A stretch of DNA of 64,000 nt from Patescibacteria group bacterium (GCA_041650895.1 JBAZKF010000001.1:273685-337684); one strand, 5' to 3'. Shown: positions 1 to 9,581, counted from the stretch's first letter. A program made the numbers and translations. Notes: a model not told the origin generated them from the letters alone.

Positions 1-25
1 CGTAAGCACATTTAGGAAACAAACA

Positions 26-62
26 ACGCCGAGAACAAGGAAGTCCTCGGCGTTTTCATTTT
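26..62 (+). terminator. Rho-independent terminator-like hairpin (gccgag...ctcggc) followed by a T-run, probably terminating a gene upstream of the window
   Basis: GC stem 'cgccgag/ctcggcg' followed by 'ttttcatttt', read directly from the sequence. Confidence 0.4.
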
Positions 63-132
63 GTTAAAATTCCATAAAACCACCATTGTGAAATAGTGGT
101 TTTGGTAGGATTTGGTAGTTTTTCGTTGTTTT

Positions 133-699
133 CTATCGATCCAGATTGATTAAAATGTTGCCACCGCCGAACATACTGCCGTTATACTGGAATTGCAGGC
201 CGGTAGCTGTCTTTGGTACTTCGAAGCCAACCCATCCTGTGCGCTTGCTGTTGGCCAGAATTTGGCCGTCTAAGCCGAAGCCGGGGTTCTCCATGGCTTT
301 ATTGGTCACTGCCACCTGATAGCTGTTTTTATCACCGTCTCGGATAAACATCTGGCCGAGAGTGCTAACGCCTTGGCCGGTAGAGCCGGTATTCTCGATG
401 GTGATATTCAGATTAAGCCATTCGTTGCCAGCGGTGGGTTTGCTGTATTGGCCGCCTTGGGAGTATTCGACTTTATTGATAGTTACTATTGAGCTGCCCA
501 TCTTAACCTGATCTCCTACTTTGAATACTTCGTCTTGTTTGGCCGCCGTATTCTGGCTGCCTGAGTTATTAGTATTGCCCACTTTTTGCGGTTTGTTACC
601 GCTGGAGGCGATGGCGATAAATAGTATAATTACTACGATCAGCCAGAACCACCAGCGCTTATAAAACTTTTTCTTTGTTTTTTGATCTTTGTTTTCCAT
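133..699 (-). CDS. Membrane-anchored DUF4352-like beta-sandwich protein
   Basis: N-terminal KK-rich segment plus one TM helix (WWFWLIVVIILFIAIA), an Asn/Ser-rich linker, then a beta-rich domain with DUF4352-type pattern (VGDQVKMG..IVTINKVEY, LNLNITIENTG, FIRDGDKNSYQ). Confidence 0.55.
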   Translation of the reverse strand: MENKDQKTKKKFYKRWWFWLIVVIILFIAIASSGNKPQKVGNTNNSGSQNTAAKQDEVFKVGDQVKMGSSIVTINKVEYSQGGQYSKPTAGNEWLNLNITIENTGSTGQGVSTLGQMFIRDGDKNSYQVAVTNKAMENPGFGLDGQILANSKRTGWVGFEVPKTATGLQFQYNGSMFGGGNILINLDR

Positions 700-954
700 A
701 TTTTGCTATTGTTTATTTATAAGTTGAGTAGCTGGAGGTTTCGACTTTAGGTTTTTCAAATAAAAAACCCACCACCAGTTAGGGTCTTGCGACCCATATA
801 CGAGTTTCCCCGTATAACGCAACGAAGCGACCCTGATGATGGGGTCTTTATTTTCGTTGCGATTTTTGACCATGCCACTGGCCGAGGCCGGGGTTTAGGT
901 CTATTAGCTAAATTGTACTATTATCCTATCATTTTTTTCTAATTTTTGGAAGTC

Positions 955-1410
955 CTAAGGTTGGTTTTTAGCCATCAGGTCGGCAAGCGTTATATTTTGG
1001 CTTACATTCTGATTATATCCATATGGCTTTCCGCCGCGCATATAGTCCGGGTGGCGATGGCTCAGCCAAAAGCGGATTGACGGGCCGTCACCTTGAAAGG
1101 CCTTAACTAATAACAACTCTTCAACAAAATCCAGAATATAGCTTTGTACGCGCTCGATTTTGTTTTTGAATGTCACATCTTCGCGAAGCCATCGATAGTA
1201 GGTATCTCGGCTAATGCCGACATGCTGTGAGACGAGAGTGACGCTTGATCCGCCTGAACGCTCAAAAATCGTCAAAAATCGCTCTTTGGCCTGCCGCGTG
1301 CTTTCACGTTCGATTCTTGTTGTAACTTCGCTCATAGGGGCAACAGTGGCCCCAAGCGCCTCAATTTTTACCGGAAAACCCAGTAAATTGTCAGATTTGT
1401 CGGATTGCAT
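955..1410 (-). CDS. HTH DNA-binding protein (phage terminase-small-subunit-like or IS3 OrfA-like HTH)
   Basis: Motif 'SQHVGISRDTYYRWLRED' resembles HTH_Tnp/HTH_23-type helix-turn-helix ('..NTLYRWVKE' pattern); short C-terminal extension. Confidence 0.5.
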   Translation of the reverse strand: MQSDKSDNLLGFPVKIEALGATVAPMSEVTTRIERESTRQAKERFLTIFERSGGSSVTLVSQHVGISRDTYYRWLREDVTFKNKIERVQSYILDFVEELLLVKAFQGDGPSIRFWLSHRHPDYMRGGKPYGYNQNVSQNITLADLMAKNQP

Positions 1411-1513
1411 GAAAAATTTTAACCTATTTTATTATATTATCCCAAGGATTTTGACTTTTGACAACTAATACTGTGGGTAGTAGAATTAAGCCAAGAAATA
1501 CTGAGTAATATTT

Positions 1514-3595
1514 TTGATTAGGAATAAATCGATTATTATGAAATTAAATGGTACAAAAAAAGTTGAGTTAGAAAATTCAATTGGTCGACATTTTATCGGA
1601 TACACTCTGAATGCGAATGCTCCTCAAGGACAAAATTGTTTTTCCTGCAATTACGTGCTTGAAAAAGATTATCGAAAATTTTTATTAAAGATACTCTTGA
1701 AAAATAAAATCAAAGGTCAGGTTAATAAGGAGCAAGCACTTGCAGAGGTGTCAATTTACAAAACAGTAAGCAGTCCATATGTTTTGTCATTAGTTGATAC
1801 CAAAGAAGACGAAAATTATATTTTTTTATTATTTCCTCTATTAGAGGGAGGGAATCTCGCCGAATATATTAAATCATCGCCGCTAAGTGAAAATAATATT
1901 ATTGAAATTGGGGTCAGTATATTGCGAGGGATAGCTGATCTATGGCGGAAAAATATAGTTCATCAGGATCTCAAGCCGGAAAATATATTCATTCAATTAG
2001 ATGGCTCCGTAAAAATTCTTGATTTTGGATCTGCGCGATTTCAGATAAGTCCATTTCGCGGAGAAGCGCGAAGAAATTTTGCGTATTCATCTCCCGAACA
2101 GATTTTAGCGAGCAGGCCGGGTAATGCTGAACTTTTGCGCATGACTATTGATGATCGCATTGATGTATATGCAGTTGGCTTAATATTATATCGCTTGATT
2201 GAAGGTCGACATCCTTTTGAGGGCAGTGATTTCCCGGCTGAAGCCATTTTCGCTGGTAATGTGTTGCCGCCACTTAATAATGAGGGTGTATCTGATGGTT
2301 TGAAAAAAGTAGTTATGAGAATGTTAGATTCAAATCAACTAAATAGACCAAATGCACAGATCGCAATCAGTTATCTCGAAATGAAAAATGTAGTACCGCC
2401 AGAATTACAAAATGGTGGATTTTATTATTGTGCTATTAACGGGACGAATCGATTTATAAAAATGAAAGATCAAATGCCGGGATTGTTTGACGGAGTTGTT
2501 GTGGAAGCATCTCAGGTTCCTAAGGACGAGGCAAAAAGAATTAAAATTAGATATGGATTAAAAACGGTTTTAATTGATCCGCAAGCATATTTATTTCAAT
2601 TTCCGAAGCATCAGTCTAAAAAGTTTAAGGGACTATCTTATTATGAACATAAAAATTTATTTAGTGACATGCCACTACTTCTACAAAAAATTAAGGAAAG
2701 GGGCGGCGATATTATAAATTTTTTGAATGAAATAGTCGGACATCAACTTAATGCAGGAGCTACTGCAATTATCCCACCATTTTTATACATTGATGAGTTT
2801 AATAACGACGCATGGAGTATAGATCAAGAAATTACGTATCTGGCACTTGATATTCTTTCCAATTATCGGAATGTCAAGCCTTTTGTAAAGGGTGTCGCTA
2901 TGTCACAAGAAATTTTAACAAGTGACCGCTCACGCAATAAAATTTTAGAATATTTAACCTCGTTAAGTGATAGGGTTGAGGGGTATATTATTTTATTAGA
3001 TTCATCGCACTCTACCGTTGTGTCTGACGAACCGTGGCTTAAGGGAGCACAGGATTTATTCACAAAACTATTAAGTACTGGAAAATATGTTATTTGGAGC
3101 AAGGCTGATTTCTCTGGCATCGCTCTTGCTCCACTCGGGGTTAGTATAGCTACAGGAGAAATGCTAAAACAAAGACGCTTCAATGTTATTGAAGACAAGC
3201 AATCTCAAGCGCGTAAAGTACCTTGTTTTTATTTACCAGCAATGTTTGCGAGAGCGACATGGCCAGAAGCATTGAACATTCTTTCTGAGTATGAAAAATT
3301 TAATGATTTAGTGTGCCAAGATGCTTGTTGTTCGGCAGTAGATTTTTCTTCGCCGGCATACAGAAAGGAAGGCGATCTTGCGGGACACATGATGTTAGCC
3401 GTAGGCAAACAGTACGGCAGATATAAGGGTGGAAGTGGAAAAGTTGTTTTAGTTGAAGATATTAAAAAAGCGAAACAACATTATGAATCGCTAAAAAATC
3501 ATAGTAATTTACTCGTCAGAGAAGGTTTGAGAAAAAATATTAAGCCATCGTCCAGCTTATTTTTAGATAGCTGGTTGAATACTTTGAATAGATAA
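1514..3595 (+). CDS. Eukaryotic-like Ser/Thr protein kinase (about aa 20-295) fused to a roughly 400-aa alpha/beta C-terminal domain of unknown function, possibly TGT/DpdA-like with a Cys cluster
   Basis: Kinase motifs present: beta3 Lys (LLKILLK), alphaC Glu, catalytic loop 'HQDLKPENIF', 'DFGSAR', 'SPE', and 'DVYAVGLILYRLIEGRHPF'. C-terminal part shows alternating beta/alpha pattern (LIDPQAYLFQ, IIPPFLYIDE, YIILLDSSHS, YVIWSKADFSG) and 'CQDACCSAVDFSSPAYR...H'. Confidence 0.75.
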   Translation: MIRNKSIIMKLNGTKKVELENSIGRHFIGYTLNANAPQGQNCFSCNYVLEKDYRKFLLKILLKNKIKGQVNKEQALAEVSIYKTVSSPYVLSLVDTKEDENYIFLLFPLLEGGNLAEYIKSSPLSENNIIEIGVSILRGIADLWRKNIVHQDLKPENIFIQLDGSVKILDFGSARFQISPFRGEARRNFAYSSPEQILASRPGNAELLRMTIDDRIDVYAVGLILYRLIEGRHPFEGSDFPAEAIFAGNVLPPLNNEGVSDGLKKVVMRMLDSNQLNRPNAQIAISYLEMKNVVPPELQNGGFYYCAINGTNRFIKMKDQMPGLFDGVVVEASQVPKDEAKRIKIRYGLKTVLIDPQAYLFQFPKHQSKKFKGLSYYEHKNLFSDMPLLLQKIKERGGDIINFLNEIVGHQLNAGATAIIPPFLYIDEFNNDAWSIDQEITYLALDILSNYRNVKPFVKGVAMSQEILTSDRSRNKILEYLTSLSDRVEGYIILLDSSHSTVVSDEPWLKGAQDLFTKLLSTGKYVIWSKADFSGIALAPLGVSIATGEMLKQRRFNVIEDKQSQARKVPCFYLPAMFARATWPEALNILSEYEKFNDLVCQDACCSAVDFSSPAYRKEGDLAGHMMLAVGKQYGRYKGGSGKVVLVEDIKKAKQHYESLKNHSNLLVREGLRKNIKPSSSLFLDSWLNTLNR

Positions 3596-4063
3596 TGATC
3601 TTCGCCAAATTTTTTCTCGCAAATTAACTTCGTAAACTTTATTGCTACTAAAATTATTTGATGTCGGATGGTGTAAAACTTTTATTGTGTTTTCATCAAA
3701 AACAATTAAACCTACGTTATGTTTTTTGAATAAACTAATGTCAGCATTTTTCGCATAATCTTTATATAATGCAAGATAACTTTTTTCGGCAAATGAACAG
3801 TACCTCCATGCTTGATATAATCCCTGTTTCCAATCAGATATTTTAACTTCAATAGCAATAAATTTAGTTTGTTTTGTATTAAAGTCGTTCTGCACCATTT
3901 TTTGTGGAAAAGACGAGATTAAAATATCGGCAATAAATGAATTATTGCCAACCTCACGCCTCATCTCAATGTTTTTTCCCCTTCTCGAACGTATAATTTT
4001 TGTAATGCCACCCTCTTGCAGTGTTTTTATTAACTGCGATGTTAGTACGTATTCACGTAACAT
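3563..4063 (-). CDS. PD-(D/E)XK (restriction-endonuclease-fold) nuclease-like protein
   Basis: Core motifs 'FIADILIS' (Asp) ... 'FIAIEVKIS' (E-x-K) with spacing typical of PD-(D/E)XK. Converges on the kinase gene and overlaps its 3' end by 33 nt. Confidence 0.45.
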   Translation of the reverse strand: MLREYVLTSQLIKTLQEGGITKIIRSRRGKNIEMRREVGNNSFIADILISSFPQKMVQNDFNTKQTKFIAIEVKISDWKQGLYQAWRYCSFAEKSYLALYKDYAKNADISLFKKHNVGLIVFDENTIKVLHHPTSNNFSSNKVYEVNLREKIWRRSLSIQSIQPAI

Positions 4064-4199
4064 ATATATTGTTTATTTTATTATATCATTTTTTTTGACG
4101 CAGGTAAAAAGATGTTTTCCACAATTAAAATTTCCCTTGAATATGGCGAATTTATTGACTATATATACGTTTTCACCTCGTACAGAATGCGGAACTCTT

Positions 4200-5102
4200 T
4201 TACAAATCAATTAGTGGATGCTTGGTTATTTGTGCCCTCAGGTGCTCGATATTGGCCGCCAAGTATATCGTCGTGGTCTTAATGTCGCTATGGCCCATCA
4301 TCTTTGCCAGTGAATAAATATCACAGCCGCCCTCCAGCATCAGTGTGGCAAACGTATGGCGTAGCTTGTGAATGGTGAAATTAATGCCTGAGGCCTCCTT
4401 GATACGGTCGACCAATCTCTTGAGGCCACTGGCCGTAAACCCGCCGTTTATAAACAGCGAGGTGAAAAATTCCGGGCAGGTTTTGTTCAGTTTTCGCCGC
4501 TCTGCGAGATACTTGTTTAATGTCTCCGCTAATTTGTAATTGATCGGCACCACCCTGTCCTTACTCCCCTTGCCCTGTCGGATAAATATCGACAAGTTCT
4601 CGATATCCACGTCAGTGAACTTCAGGTTTAGCAACTCCTTTTTTCGCAAGCCGGCCATAATAAACGTCGAGAAAATCGCATAATTGCGGTAACGCAGGAA
4701 TTTTTCCTTGTAAGGATAGTTATCTATCACTTCGAGAATTTTCATTGCTTCTTGCTTGGTCAGCTTCGGTGGCAATCGTTTTTCCAATTTCGGCGTCTCG
4801 ATGTCATCAATCGGATTGCCGGTCATATACCCCTCTTTGACGCACCAGCGGAAGAACACGGCCAGCGACTTGTGATAGCAGATGAAAGTGTTAGTCGTCC
4901 ATTTCTGCTGGGTACGGCCGTGATAAAACAAATTACGGACGTTTTCCTGACTGACCTGCTCAATATCCGTAATGTCGGATAATCTGGCGTAATAGTTGAT
5001 CACCTGCCGGTAGCGCTTGATCGTCGGCTGGGAAAACCCCTTGATGAACTTTGAATAATCAAAGAACTTTTGCGATAAAATTTGTATAGTCATAAAAAAC
5101 AC
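4200..5102 (-). CDS. Tyrosine site-specific recombinase / phage-type integrase
   Basis: C-terminal catalytic signature 'HKLRHTFATLMLEGGCDIYSLAKMMGHSDIKTTTIYL' (R..H-x-x-R...Y), N-terminal SAM-like core-binding domain. Immediately adjacent to the tRNA 3' end. Confidence 0.9.
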   Translation of the reverse strand: MFFMTIQILSQKFFDYSKFIKGFSQPTIKRYRQVINYYARLSDITDIEQVSQENVRNLFYHGRTQQKWTTNTFICYHKSLAVFFRWCVKEGYMTGNPIDDIETPKLEKRLPPKLTKQEAMKILEVIDNYPYKEKFLRYRNYAIFSTFIMAGLRKKELLNLKFTDVDIENLSIFIRQGKGSKDRVVPINYKLAETLNKYLAERRKLNKTCPEFFTSLFINGGFTASGLKRLVDRIKEASGINFTIHKLRHTFATLMLEGGCDIYSLAKMMGHSDIKTTTIYLAANIEHLRAQITKHPLIDL

Positions 5103-5133
5103 TGCGGTTTTATTGCAGTGTTTTCCATATTTG

Positions 5134-5397
5134 AGCCGTTGTGCGGATTCGAACCGCAGACCTACTCCTTCACTTATACCTCCATTTCAAAATTATATTG
5201 GAGGGTTAGACTGTATATCAAGCGTGGCAAATTATGCTTTAGCTTCCCTTGTCAGTCGTTCGGGCGATCGCTCGCCACGGTCTTAACCATTTCTGGCCTT
5301 TAACCGTAATTCGGGATTCAACGATTAGTTTCCTAATCGAGGGGCAAAACCTGTTCGGTTCACCATGGAGTTGCTCTACCAACTGAGCTACAACGGC
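5134..5397 (-). tRNA. tRNA-Thr (anticodon GGU) interrupted by an intervening sequence of about 191 nt in the anticodon loop (possible group I intron). Exons about 5360-5397 and 5134-5168
   Basis: Minus-strand 5' exon GCCGTTG-TA-GCTC-AGTTGGTA-GAGC-A-ACTCC-ATGGTGA. 3' exon GGAGT-AGGTC-TGCGG-TTCGAAT-CCGCA-CAACGGC-T. Anticodon stem ACTCC/GGAGT and acceptor GCCGTTG/CAACGGC pair perfectly only when the two halves are joined. CCA is not encoded. Confidence 0.6.
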
Positions 5398-5526
5398 ATT
5401 AAATTTTATAAAACAATTTTATCGGGACGACCCATTTACGGCCGATTGATGACGGCAAAAAATGGATTTACCGCAGTAATTCTGCGGTAAAGGGCAATTC
5501 TCTGGCAGCAAACCTCGGCGGATTTG

Positions 5527-5564
5527 TTACCATGGATGCGCTCTACCAACTGAGCTACAACGGC
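5527..5564 (-). pseudogene. Orphan tRNA 5' half (acceptor + D-arm + anticodon stem-loop, anticodon GGU) with no matching 3' half
   Basis: GCCGTTGTAGCTCAGTTGGTAGAGC-G-CATCC-ATGGTAA matches the acceptor/D-arm of the neighbouring tRNA-Thr. The required GGATG, T-arm and CAACGGC are absent in the following 130 nt. Confidence 0.4.
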
Positions 5565-6461: not shown

Positions 6462-6516
6462 AAAAATTTATTGGAAATCACTCGAATACCCTCGACGGAT
6501 AACAGTAGAGCCAACT

Positions 6517-7383
6517 TCATCGCCCGCTACCGAATAATTTAATTAAGCGTTCCGTTTCGGCGGCAACGGCGTCAATTGACGGTTTTAGAATTTGACGCGG
6601 ATCATAATGATTTTTTGGCGTGTCTTTGATTGTTCGCCTTAACTCTTGAGTGAAAGCGCGACGCAAATCCGTATCAATATTGACGATCCGGACGCCGAAT
6701 TTAGCGGCTGAGCGCAAGTCGCCATCAGCCAAACCGGAAGCGCCATGAAGCACTAACGGCGTCTGCGGAATCTCCTGCTGGATTTTCTTCAGCCGAGGAA
6801 AATCAATCTTTTCTTTACCCCGGTAATAGCCGTGCATAGTACCGACAGAAACCGCCAAGGTATCCACGCCGGTACGGCGGATAAACTCCTTCACCTTAGC
6901 CGGATCGGTCATATAGGTGTTGGGATCCTTGGGCACATTCTTAAGTACCGTACCTTCTTTGCCCAGCATTGCTCCCAACTCAGCCTGCGCCCAAACGCCA
7001 TGGCTATGGGCAAAAACCGCCGCTTTCTTGGTTAAAGCGACATTCTGCTCAAATGGTAAATCCGAACCGTCAATGTGGACGGAAGAAAATCCCGCTTTAA
7101 CACAATCGACTACAACTTTAAAACTATGACCATGATCCAAGTGAATAGCAATGGGTATTCTCTTGCCATCGGTGGTAGCAATAATCTTAATCAATTCCGT
7201 GATATTGGTCAAGCCGGCATATTTAATGGCGCTTTCCGAAACTTGAACGATCACTGGAGACTTTCGCGCCACCGCGCCGCGGATAATACCCAGTGTTACT
7301 TCTAAATTAGAGGTGTTAAAAGCGCCCAAGGCATATTTGCCTTGTTGCGCACCGTTAATAATTTTTTTGATATGAACTATCAT
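6517..7383 (-). CDS. fba: Class II fructose-bisphosphate aldolase
   Basis: Motifs 'IAIHLDHGHS', 'HGASG', and an N-terminal 'YALGAFN' typical of FbaA/TBP aldolase class II. Confidence 0.9.
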   Translation of the reverse strand: MIVHIKKIINGAQQGKYALGAFNTSNLEVTLGIIRGAVARKSPVIVQVSESAIKYAGLTNITELIKIIATTDGKRIPIAIHLDHGHSFKVVVDCVKAGFSSVHIDGSDLPFEQNVALTKKAAVFAHSHGVWAQAELGAMLGKEGTVLKNVPKDPNTYMTDPAKVKEFIRRTGVDTLAVSVGTMHGYYRGKEKIDFPRLKKIQQEIPQTPLVLHGASGLADGDLRSAAKFGVRIVNIDTDLRRAFTQELRRTIKDTPKNHYDPRQILKPSIDAVAAETERLIKLFGSGR

Positions 7384-8152: not shown

Positions 8153-8656
8153 TTAAATTAAAAAATCCAAAAAATTCAGTATGCCGGTGGTAGCCAGAAA
8201 CACGATAATTCCGGCAATCATGACCCCGGCGACAATCGCCAAAAAAGCGCGCCGGTTATCAATACCGAACAGCCAAGCCGCCAAAGCGCCGGTCCAAGCT
8301 CCAGTCATGGGCAAAGGTATGGCCACAAAAATCGCCAAGGCCAGCAGGCCGTACTTTTCATAATTCTTGCCGATCTTATGCCTGGTACGTTTGAATAGCC
8401 AAGCAAAAAACTTTTCCATCAGCCGACTATGCTTAGCCAGCCAAGCGGAAACCGGACCGATATACAGCAGAATCAGCATCACCGGCAATAAATTGCCGAC
8501 GACTGACAGGCAATAAGCCAGTAGAGGGTTAAGCTTATAAACCGTCAAAGCTACCGGCAAGGCGCCGCGCAACTCTACGATCGGAATCATAGAAATCAAC
8601 AAAACGACCCATGACGGGGGCAAACCGGCGAGAAATTTTATCAACAGATAAACCAT
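8153..8656 (-). CDS. Small multi-TM membrane protein (COG2426 / putative small multidrug export-like)
   Basis: Four predicted TM helices; general resemblance to the Sm_multidrug_ex family. Assignment is tentative. Confidence 0.45.
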   Translation of the reverse strand: MVYLLIKFLAGLPPSWVVLLISMIPIVELRGALPVALTVYKLNPLLAYCLSVVGNLLPVMLILLYIGPVSAWLAKHSRLMEKFFAWLFKRTRHKIGKNYEKYGLLALAIFVAIPLPMTGAWTGALAAWLFGIDNRRAFLAIVAGVMIAGIIVFLATTGILNFLDFLI

Positions 8657-8657
8657 A

Positions 8658-9581
8658 TCACCAAGAAAAATTATTAAACACCCAATAAGCCAAAGATTTG
8701 GTATCGGTAAAACGGTCGTAAGTGGAAGAACTGCCCAAGACAGCGATTAATAGCCGCCGATCGTTCTGATCTTTGACTTGGCTGGCAAAACAGTAGCCGG
8801 CGGACGGCAAAGTGCCGGTTTTGCCCGCTTCCAACTTGTAAGAATCCCCGCGATAGCCGAACTCGGCTTTCAAAATCGTGTCCGTGCTATTGATATGGCG
8901 CGACAAATTCTTATTGATAATCGGCACATCATAACTCTTAAAACTCAAGGCCTTGCGGACTTCGGAATGGGAAAAAGCGACTTTAATCAGCTTGATGACG
9001 TCTTCGGCGCTGGCCTTATTATCCACAGACAACCCGGTCGTCTCACTGAACTGGCTTGAATCCATGACTAACAGCTTGGCATATAAATTCATTTGCCTGA
9101 CAAATTCTTCCGGCTTCAATCCGGTGGACCTGGACAGAGCTACCGCCGCTTCGTTGGCTGAAGAAACAAGCATGGTATAAAATAAATCACGAACAGTCAA
9201 GGTGTCGCCGACCATTAAAGCCGGTTTGGCTCCTACGCGAAAATCGTCAGCAGTCATCGTGTACTGCTTATCCCAGCCGGGGTTATGCTCCAAGAAAACC
9301 AAGGCGGTCATCAATTTAGTCAAGGAGGCAATAGGACGGCAATCCTGGGAATTCTTCTCATACAAAACCGCGCCCGTTTCCGGTTCTACCACGATAAAGC
9401 TTTTCGCCGTAACTTTAACACCTAAACTCTCGCTGTCTATGGCTTTTTCCGGCAAACGAGCCTCAATTTTCTGTTGAGTCAGGGGCAAAGAATTGGCTGG
9501 CAGAACGGCGTCGGCAGGATTGGTGGCCTGCGCTTGCAGAAATATTGCGGCCAAGAATAAGTTGAGAACGGTTTGAAACAT
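8658..9581 (-). CDS. Serine-type D-Ala-D-Ala carboxypeptidase (PBP5/DacA-like, low-MW PBP)
   Basis: Signal peptide; SxxK 'ASLTK', SxN 'SSAN', KTG 'GKTGT' motifs in canonical order. Confidence 0.8.
   Translation of the reverse strand: MFQTVLNLFLAAIFLQAQATNPADAVLPANSLPLTQQKIEARLPEKAIDSESLGVKVTAKSFIVVEPETGAVLYEKNSQDCRPIASLTKLMTALVFLEHNPGWDKQYTMTADDFRVGAKPALMVGDTLTVRDLFYTMLVSSANEAAVALSRSTGLKPEEFVRQMNLYAKLLVMDSSQFSETTGLSVDNKASAEDVIKLIKVAFSHSEVRKALSFKSYDVPIINKNLSRHINSTDTILKAEFGYRGDSYKLEAGKTGTLPSAGYCFASQVKDQNDRRLLIAVLGSSSTYDRFTDTKSLAYWVFNNFSW

Follow-up and report, generated by a model that had tools for sequence, protein, structure and literature searches.

A kinase-barrel protein and a convergent PD-(D/E)xK nuclease form a mobile, probably new defence or restriction-modification-like cassette carried by a small integrative element of a Patescibacteria genome

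The locus and its gene content

The DNA analysed here, referred to as the window, is a stretch of 64,000 nucleotides (nt) from a Patescibacteria (candidate phyla radiation, CPR) metagenome-assembled genome (MAG; GCA_041650895.1, JBAZKF010000001.1:273685-337684) with a mean GC content of 0.425. Close to its left end, a gene for a Hanks-type Ser/Thr kinase fused to a C-terminal barrel domain faces a gene for a predicted PD-(D/E)xK nuclease of 166 amino acids (aa), which is identical to the NCBI entry WC473_01380. The two genes, together called the cassette in the following, converge and overlap by 33 nt (3563-3595). They share a small element with genes for a tyrosine integrase, a helix-turn-helix (HTH) protein and a LOOT RNA, and this element lies directly 3' of a tRNA-Thr(GGU) gene (Table 1). 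An initial annotation had listed the HTH protein, the kinase fusion and the nuclease as cargo of an island at this site. All three are indeed present, and the LOOT RNA as well as the resemblance of the HTH protein to small terminase subunits (TerS), neither of which had been named, have to be added. We conclude that the kinase-barrel/nuclease pair is real and mobile and that it probably constitutes a new defence or restriction-modification (R-M)-like cassette.

Table 1 Features at the left end of the window. Positions are counted from the first nucleotide of the window.
Feature	Position	Strand	Basis or remark
Block without counterpart in the closest relatives	~69-5526		Synteny with L016 and L017
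DUF4352 gene	133-699	(-)	Flanks the island on the left; inside the block without counterpart in relatives
Left 14-nt direct repeat, candidate attachment (att) site	690-703		Exact match search; overlaps the DUF4352 start codon
LOOT RNA	781-901	(-)	Rfam RF03000
HTH protein, TerS-like, 151 aa	955-1410	(-)	Pfam and PHROG profiles
Promoter-like site, kinase gene	1458-1486	(+)	TTGACA-17-TAGAAT, 11/12, consensus match only
Kinase-barrel fusion, open reading frame (ORF) of 693 aa	1514-3595	(+)	Opens at TTG 1514
Hanks-type Ser/Thr kinase domain	1538-2386	(+)	Pfam and homologue alignment
C-terminal TIM-barrel domain, ~400 aa	2387-3595	(+)	Predicted structure and profile searches
PD-(D/E)xK nuclease, 166 aa	3563-4063	(-)	Fold prediction and conserved motif
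Promoter-like site, nuclease gene	4080-4108	(-)	TTTACC-17-TATAAT plus TG extension, 10/12, consensus match only
Tyrosine recombinase (island integrase), 300 aa	4200-5102	(-)	Phage_integrase profile
Right 14-nt direct repeat	5119-5132		Exact match; abuts the tRNA 3' end
Insertion-bearing tRNA-Thr(GGU)	5133-5397	(-)	ARAGORN with introns allowed
Insertion in the tRNA anticodon loop	about 5171-5361		~191 nt, structured
Terminator-like hairpin after the orphan tRNA half	5467-5491	(-)
Orphaned fragment of the ancestral tRNA-Thr(GGU), 5' half, tRNA positions 1-38	5527-5564	(-)	Comparison with relatives

The nuclease and the kinase-barrel protein

The AlphaFold2 model of the 166-aa protein (predicted local distance difference test, pLDDT, 92) contains the core alpha-beta-beta-beta-alpha-beta fold. 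Among 88 homologues, E72-x-K74 is invariant, D46 is conserved in at least 90% and the family signature reads IAIEVKxxDWxxGLYQAxRY. By prediction, the protein is a clear PD-(D/E)xK nuclease, and with fold and motif confirmed, its original designation as a nuclease that converges on the kinase gene can be retained. No family match was obtained in Pfam, NCBIfam 20.0 (June 2026), PADLOC 2.0.0 or PHROGs (libraries of 2023-2026), and the nuclease profile did not match any PDB sequence even at E≤10. By structure, the best neighbours of the nuclease include NucS, a repair nuclease, and a protein of the SPO1766 type that is uncharacterised; sequence identity of the window nuclease to SPO1766 (3dnx), the C-terminal domain of NucS and the nuclease domain of Can2 amounts to 14-15%. 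Searches of INPHARED phages for the nuclease and of IMG/VR viral contigs for the cassette were negative.

In the fusion protein, residues 49-284 match the Pfam profile Pkinase (PF00069) with 124.2 bits (cutoff 31.7). Of 16 homologues, 15-16 retain each of K59, E78, H150-x-D152, N157, D170-F-G and E195; the glycine-rich loop is degenerate. Judged from these positions, the domain looks like an active, catalytically intact Hanks-type Ser/Thr kinase. The true start of the protein is probably the ATG at 1538 (685 aa), because homologues begin with MKL.

The last ~400 residues of the window protein do not match any family in the same four libraries. The description as a 693-aa Ser/Thr kinase fused to an uncharacterised domain is thus appropriate, and neither this domain nor the nuclease turned out to belong to a common housekeeping family. 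In the predicted model, the domain folds as a (beta/alpha)8 TIM barrel, and pLDDT exceeds 80 for aa 40-200. An exhaustive search with HMMER yielded 389 cluster representatives, and a third homologue search with the barrel profile gained just one further protein. The best 149 of the 389 representatives include 58 kinase fusions and 79 stand-alone proteins of ~390 aa. Conserved throughout the family are D64, P65, Q120, P131 and H334, the last of which is near-invariant, together with some aromatic and glycine positions, and the pocket of the barrel is conserved. A CxCxxC...H motif, corresponding to the zinc motif of TGT enzymes, follows the barrel in most family members, including stand-alone proteins and the fusion from Priestia. 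The window protein has C310-x3-C314-C315...H334 instead, and a member from Saccharibacteria has no cysteines. One family member (P0200) gave weak matches to Pfam TGT (E=0.002) and to NCBIfam tgt_general, both exactly over the zinc region. Searching PDB sequences with the barrel profile returned nothing useful; ArcTGT appeared as a weak match at E=0.32 and the other matches were low-complexity PPR noise. An adenosine-deaminase/TatD-type metal barrel was considered and rejected, as a conserved HxH or other metal-ligand pattern is absent.

Taken together, it is roughly an even bet that the barrel is TGT/DpdA-like, an assignment read from the zinc-type motif and the weak profile matches. Several observations weigh against it. 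The barrel model is mediocre (pLDDT 67), alignment of the barrel profile with E. coli Tgt by hhalign gave a probability of 2.8%, and Foldseek comparison of the barrel with the PDB returned generic TIM barrels only. Furthermore, D64 is the sole acidic residue conserved family-wide, where TGT enzymes have a catalytic Asp pair.

Pairing and architecture of the cassette

The kinase-barrel/nuclease pair was recovered in about 29 loci, and pairing was observed in every nuclease locus examined. In all eight CPR contexts, the window included, a kinase fusion of ~680 aa converges with a nuclease homologue of ~160 aa. Among loci fetched via the nuclease profile alone, 16/16 contain an abutting convergent barrel ORF (three of them repeat earlier contigs), and the kinase is present in all eleven that are of sufficient length. 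For stand-alone barrel proteins, three contexts were informative. In each of them the convergent overlapping neighbour is a nuclease homologue with an N-terminal extension (hhalign probability 98.6-99.1%), and two hold a PIN_3 gene at the place of the kinase. In this kinase-less form (L018, 2326-4927; L022, 5001-7273), the barrel gene is followed by PIN_3 and by the convergent PD-(D/E)xK gene. Upstream of the barrel, L018 has an XRE-type HTH gene, and AAA_13 and DUF2130 genes adjoin the cassette in L022. A minimal form comprising barrel and nuclease with neither kinase nor PIN is found in L020. The genes overlap by 4-64 nt in all eleven convergent pairs measured. Each of the two window genes has its own promoter-like site, and a terminator between them was not found.

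Further copies reside on plasmids. The fused convergent form is encoded on Priestia megaterium p6_CACC119 (NZ_CP140272.1, 27082-29751, L025; proteins WP_322552809.1 and WP_322552810.1) and on a Kocuria rosea plasmid (NZ_CP127859.1, L061), the gene table of which lacks the nuclease. Three separate co-directional genes for nuclease, kinase and barrel occur on a plasmid of the haloarchaeon Natribaculum breve (CP095393.1, L059), in a stretch without annotated features, and on Polaromonas pPNAP03 (NC_008759.1, L060), where the nuclease is likewise unannotated. Clavibacter plasmids carry an orphan barrel without nuclease. A nuclease without barrel was not seen among the loci examined.

The co-occurrence of the two genes elsewhere, for which the initial annotation had recommended a search, is thus documented by seven further CPR contexts, the 16 nuclease-fetched loci, the three stand-alone barrel contexts and four plasmids. 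Its view of kinase and nuclease as a pair holds in so far as the genes do co-occur; the conserved partner of the nuclease, however, is the barrel and not the kinase itself. In the loci compared, the constant partner of the nuclease is the predicted barrel domain, while the putative kinase is either fused to it or encoded separately, and a PIN gene can take its place. As recognised by sequence comparison, the pair of barrel and nuclease spans Patescibacteria, Bacillota, Actinomycetota, Pseudomonadota and Halobacteria.

Mobility of the cassette

When the window was compared with locus L001, the kinase fusions proved 65% and the nucleases 71% identical, while syntenic housekeeping proteins (triosephosphate isomerase, ScpA/B, S11 peptidase, AspRS and others) shared 31-52% identity. 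The cassette occupies different loci in the two genomes. The kinase fusion gene has a GC content of 0.36 and the nuclease gene one of 0.31, as opposed to 0.46-0.47 for the integrase and the TerS-like gene and 0.45-0.47 for the neighbours of the cassette. From the differing loci, the excess identity and the low GC content we therefore conclude that the cassette moves horizontally and independently of this integrase. The initial annotation, which had treated the pair as cargo of an integrase/tRNA island, needs correction to this extent.

The neighbourhoods of the cassette differ in content. Large serine recombinases with tRNAs and LOOT RNA surround it in L003 and L012, hsdR and hsdM genes for a type I R-M system in L007, genes for a reverse transcriptase, a resolvase, DUF4238 and NucS_C in L009, and HNH and ParB genes in L014. 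It is present on mobilizable plasmids (Priestia, Kocuria) and also on non-mobilizable ones. tmRNA and tRNA genes are typical island integration sites; in L042 the cassette is located ~0.9 kb from a tmRNA gene (8269-8664), and in L038 the distance to a tRNA gene (6507-6578) is 134 nt.

Comparison with known systems

In agreement with the initial annotation, the domain combination does not match any named system: PADLOC, NCBIfam, Pfam, PHROGs and the literature were all searched without a match for the pair. Full-text literature searches did not retrieve a description of the pair, nor did searches on LOOT function and on CPR defence islands. MAD6 of MADS, PD-T4-6, PglW of BREX and Stk2-type systems have a Hanks-type kinase domain in common with the cassette but possess neither this barrel nor an obligate convergent PD-(D/E)xK partner. 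As candidates for the fusion protein, MAD6 (NF047741, 78 bits versus a cutoff of 460; the PADLOC mad6 match, at profile positions 76-311 of 659, does not extend beyond the kinase domain), PglW of BREX type 2 (NF033442, 18.6 bits versus 990; no Brx or Pgl genes nearby) and Stk1-type kinases (NCBIfam, 99.7 bits versus 450) were rejected. The same applies to PD-T4-6, the PADLOC models of which cover aa 54-281 only, about one third of the protein, and which is a single-gene system as compared with a two-gene cassette.

Membership in Dpd was rejected because dpd genes are absent from the Pfam-annotated neighbourhoods. Dpd comprises about eleven genes versus two here, a kinase fusion and a convergent PD-(D/E)xK partner are not among its features, and the cassette barrel is without significant sequence or profile likeness to TGT or DpdA. 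Convergent type II R-M systems share several traits with the cassette. Both are compact, selfish and horizontally moving, both combine a PD-(D/E)xK nuclease with a protective or controlling partner that is encoded on the opposite strand and has its own promoter, and orphans are found of the protective partner but not of the nuclease. The XRE-type HTH gene upstream of the barrel in L018 is a further common trait. In contrast to type II R-M systems, the cassette lacks a methyltransferase, and the partner is a kinase-TIM-barrel protein as putative modifier.

Proposed function of the cassette

Overall, a role in defence, be it by R-M-like logic or by abortive infection, appears likely. More specifically, we favour a reading to which we assign a little less than an even chance: the cassette would be an anti-phage/anti-plasmid conflict system in which the DNase acts as toxic effector and the kinase-barrel protein as its obligatory controller. 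Taken alone, the R-M-like mechanism is more tentative still and clearly falls short of an even chance. According to this proposal, the barrel would mark or recognise self by acting on the bases of nucleic acids, either through base exchange of the TGT/DpdA type or through glycosylase chemistry, and the nuclease would cut DNA that does not carry the mark. As in type II R-M systems with convergent genes, separate promotion could allow the protective partner to be expressed ahead of the nuclease. The kinase may provide an ATP-dependent regulatory or back-up growth-arrest function.

Type II R-M systems commonly have a convergent layout, an arrangement that is unusual among sensor-effector operons. 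We favour R-M-like logic because most copies are convergent with separate promoter-like sites and without a terminator between the genes, because the barrel occurs as an orphan and the nuclease was never seen alone, because a minimal form with just barrel and nuclease exists (L020), and because TGT-fold enzymes modify DNA in Dpd. The same role as DNA modifiers has been proposed for TGT-fold enzymes of BREX-related systems (PMC12839542).

A number of points weigh against the favoured interpretation. The function assigned to the cassette is deduced from sequence and context, and a CPR nuclease of 166 aa is without an obvious DNA-specificity domain. DpdB, DpdC and preQ0-synthesis genes are not among the neighbours of the cassette, and a kinase or PIN accessory would be unusual among R-M systems. 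Enrichment in defence islands was assessed on about a dozen neighbourhoods without statistics, and the copy in L001 is embedded among housekeeping genes with no recombinase nearby.

The cassette could also function in abortive infection, with the barrel sensing phage nucleic acid or a small molecule and activating the kinase, which would then phosphorylate and unleash the nuclease or act on host targets, resulting in DNA degradation or growth arrest. In line with this, the kinase is catalytically intact and under selection, kinase and PIN look interchangeable as effector modules, and the few barrel residues conserved family-wide could suit ligand binding. The best PADLOC kinase matches are defence kinases (mad6, 7.5e-44; PD-T4-6, 4e-32), but these matches cover the generic kinase domain only. 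Furthermore, sensor-effector systems are normally organised as co-directional operons, whereas the genes are mostly convergent with separate promoter-like sites here, and the minimal form in L020 dispenses with both kinase and PIN. We regard this abortive-infection reading as rather unlikely.

Obligate pairing, the conserved 3' overlap, plasmid carriage, the existence of an orphan barrel but not of an orphan nuclease, and the location of a Clavibacter barrel next to a RES-Xre toxin-antitoxin pair would all suit a pure addiction module without immune role. In this case the nuclease would be a toxin neutralised by the kinase-barrel protein, the 3' overlap would serve antisense control, and loss of the module would kill the cell. 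However, a two-enzyme 'antitoxin' of ~680 aa with conserved catalytic sites is far beyond known antitoxins in complexity, and addiction is compatible with defence, as exemplified by R-M systems; we consider an exclusively addictive role quite improbable. A cellular repair or damage-response module that merely rides on mobile elements, in which a structure-specific nuclease would cooperate with the barrel as glycosylase or transglycosylase and the kinase would signal, is in keeping with the structural neighbours NucS and SPO1766-type protein, with the Priestia copy beside a 'damage repair protein' gene and a YolD-like gene, with a Clavibacter copy near an SOS-response-associated peptidase gene and with the housekeeping context in L001, but is very improbable in view of the patchy spread over domains of life, the strong horizontal transfer with atypical GC content and differing loci in syntenic genomes, and the existence of close relatives without the cassette.

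If the cassette is indeed a defence system, it represents a new architecture in which a kinase and a zinc-motif TIM barrel are combined with an obligate convergent PD-(D/E)xK nuclease. If, in addition, the barrel is of the TGT/DpdA type, the two genes would provide a compact means of self/non-self discrimination by base exchange, and kinase signalling would be fused to nucleic-acid base chemistry. For Patescibacteria, provided that the cassette defends, it would exemplify how genome-reduced symbionts gain immunity via very small integrative elements. At its most far-reaching, the proposal is that the barrel forms an unrecognised TGT/DpdA branch and that, with kinase and nuclease, it establishes a new R-M-like immunity that would work by base replacement or excision and not by methylation, would extend from haloarchaea to Patescibacteria and in CPR bacteria would be spread by LOOT-bearing miniature satellite-like elements; in this complete form we deem it unlikely. 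Since cultivable hosts carry copies (Priestia megaterium, Kocuria rosea and Polaromonas plasmids), the cassette is directly accessible to testing.

The integrative element

The window contains a small integrative element (~704-5132) directly 3' of a replacement copy of tRNA-Thr(GGU). Its integrase scores 110 bits to the Pfam profile Phage_integrase and starts 30 nt from the 3' end of the tRNA gene, just as initially annotated. It appears Xer-like, yet stays below every curated NCBIfam cutoff (XerD, 175.8 versus 329.6; XerC, 174.1 versus 335; XerA, 188.1 versus 220). A housekeeping XerC/XerD role was rejected on account of these scores and of the absence of the gene from the same site in relatives. 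A second copy of the integrase was found neither in the window nor at the other loci, and there is no counterpart at the syntenic site in relatives. Comparison of the tRNA 3' end with the left side of the island, which had been suggested as a check, revealed an exact 14-nt direct repeat, TGTTTTCCATATTT, outside the tRNA. The two copies bound ~4.4 kb, and an exact 14-mer repeat placed in this way, one copy being no more than 30 nt from the tRNA end, occurred in one of 500 shuffles. The extent of ~4.4 kb given for the island corresponds to the repeat-bounded element, but the non-syntenic block is larger than that.

The HTH protein gave weak Pfam HTH matches (HTH_Tnp_1_2, E=4e-4) and a match to a small-terminase PHROG (E=1e-6), and it has 14 relatives on viral contigs. 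In L047 a homologue is encoded directly upstream of genes for a Terminase_6C large terminase and a portal protein, and in L049 a homologue precedes a 499-aa ORF and a Mu-type portal gene. Inspection of the ORFs in 704-5132 with Pfam, PADLOC, NCBIfam and PHROGs did not reveal genes for the large terminase subunit (TerL), capsid, replication or a repressor. With an integrase and a TerS but neither TerL nor capsid, the element has a signature like that of satellites, and a remnant prophage is just as possible. The element resembles satellites of the phage-inducible chromosomal island type and tRNA islands by its integrase at a tRNA 3' end, the direct repeat, TerS without TerL or capsid and the defence-type cargo. 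It differs from such satellites by its size of only ~4.4 kb, by the absence of a recognised replication or repressor module, by the split, non-ancestral tRNA with an orphan half of the ancestral one, and by the LOOT RNA.

Accordingly, the integrase region might be the decayed remnant of a prophage or satellite and the 14-nt repeat a coincidence. This explanation concerns the carrier only, is compatible with any function of the cassette and is possible, if somewhat doubtful. The lack of recognised TerL, capsid and replication genes in the block and the small size would be expected for such a remnant. Three further observations weigh against an intact element. The repeat is short, with an exact 14-mer repeat arising somewhere in 18% of the shuffles. 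Exact searches of metagenome and genome contigs did not return the empty-site junction (left flank, repeat and tRNA end), and the block missing from relatives exceeds the repeat-bounded element. On the other hand, the integrase ORF is intact and contains the catalytic-region motif HxxR (HKLRHTF), the positions of the repeat coincide exactly with the tRNA end and with the gene boundary on the far side, and elements with recombinase, LOOT RNA and cassette recur in L003 and L012, the latter also with a terminase-like small ORF.

Replacement of the tRNA-Thr gene

ARAGORN with default settings did not find a tRNA in the window, and none reached the Rfam gathering score. The gene consists of two halves on the minus strand, ~191 nt apart, and is detected by ARAGORN when introns are allowed; default tRNA finders miss it because the insertion splits it. 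A tRNA-Thr(GGU) of 74 nt, with AUGGUAA as its loop, is the sole canonical product. Compared with shuffled sequences, the insertion folds better (z = -2.3). It does not match any Rfam intron family, and a group I intron match was not obtained even at E≤10. Within the insertion, a promoter-like site graded as strong (TTGATA-18-TATAAT, 5221-5192, minus strand) is directed toward the integrase.

The nearest genomes found are one Patescibacteria MAG and one Candidatus Buchananbacteria MAG. Two relatives share the right flank, where a TPR protein is 91-93% identical and the DNA about 82% up to window position 5527. At the same site, L016 and L017 carry an intact, intron-less tRNA-Thr(GGU) followed by tRNA-Tyr, and both lack the whole block, so that the island is not a region conserved in syntenic relatives without the integrase. 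Synteny stops at the orphan 5' half of tRNA-Thr. In L017, about 390 nt, which hold the 3' half of tRNA-Thr and tRNA-Tyr, take the place of the block, and likeness resumes only at a terminator hairpin at window positions 25-56. The ancestral 3' half of tRNA-Thr and the tRNA-Tyr are missing from the whole 64-kb window, in which ARAGORN did not find a further tRNA. Since its anticodon stem and T-arm differ from those of the ancestral gene, the insertion-bearing tRNA-Thr is a replacement copy. The initial annotation was thus right about the identity of the tRNA and its 3' end, but the gene is split by an insertion and is not the ancestral copy. As the block is larger than the repeat-bounded 4.4 kb, more than one event is suggested.

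Downstream of tRNA-Tyr, the relatives carry a unit of ~190 nt, in one copy in L017 (9130-9305) and in two tandem copies in L016 (9040-9456). Each unit starts with the T-arm-like sequence GGGATTCGAAC and closes with AATCCCTCCCGGCCCA, which repeats the 3' end of tRNA-Tyr. These units, which are not recognised by Rfam, may represent pseudo-tRNAs interrupted in the T-loop or a small element that targets tRNAs.

LOOT RNAs

The LOOT RNA of the window is a full-length match to RF03000 with 77.1 bits (gathering score 46.4). Further LOOT RNAs are present in L003 (7303-7422 and 15207-15325), L012 (4885-5000) and L034 (4803-4929). Small integrative elements of CPR bacteria thus repeatedly contain a LOOT RNA or have one nearby; the LOOT RNAs of the window, L003 and L012 are situated beside tyrosine or large serine recombinases and tRNA genes. 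This ties the RNA to such elements, which may be the first biological context for a function-orphan RNA. One of the copies in L003 precedes genes for an S49/ClpP-like protease and DUF5874, an arrangement of prophage- or satellite-like appearance.

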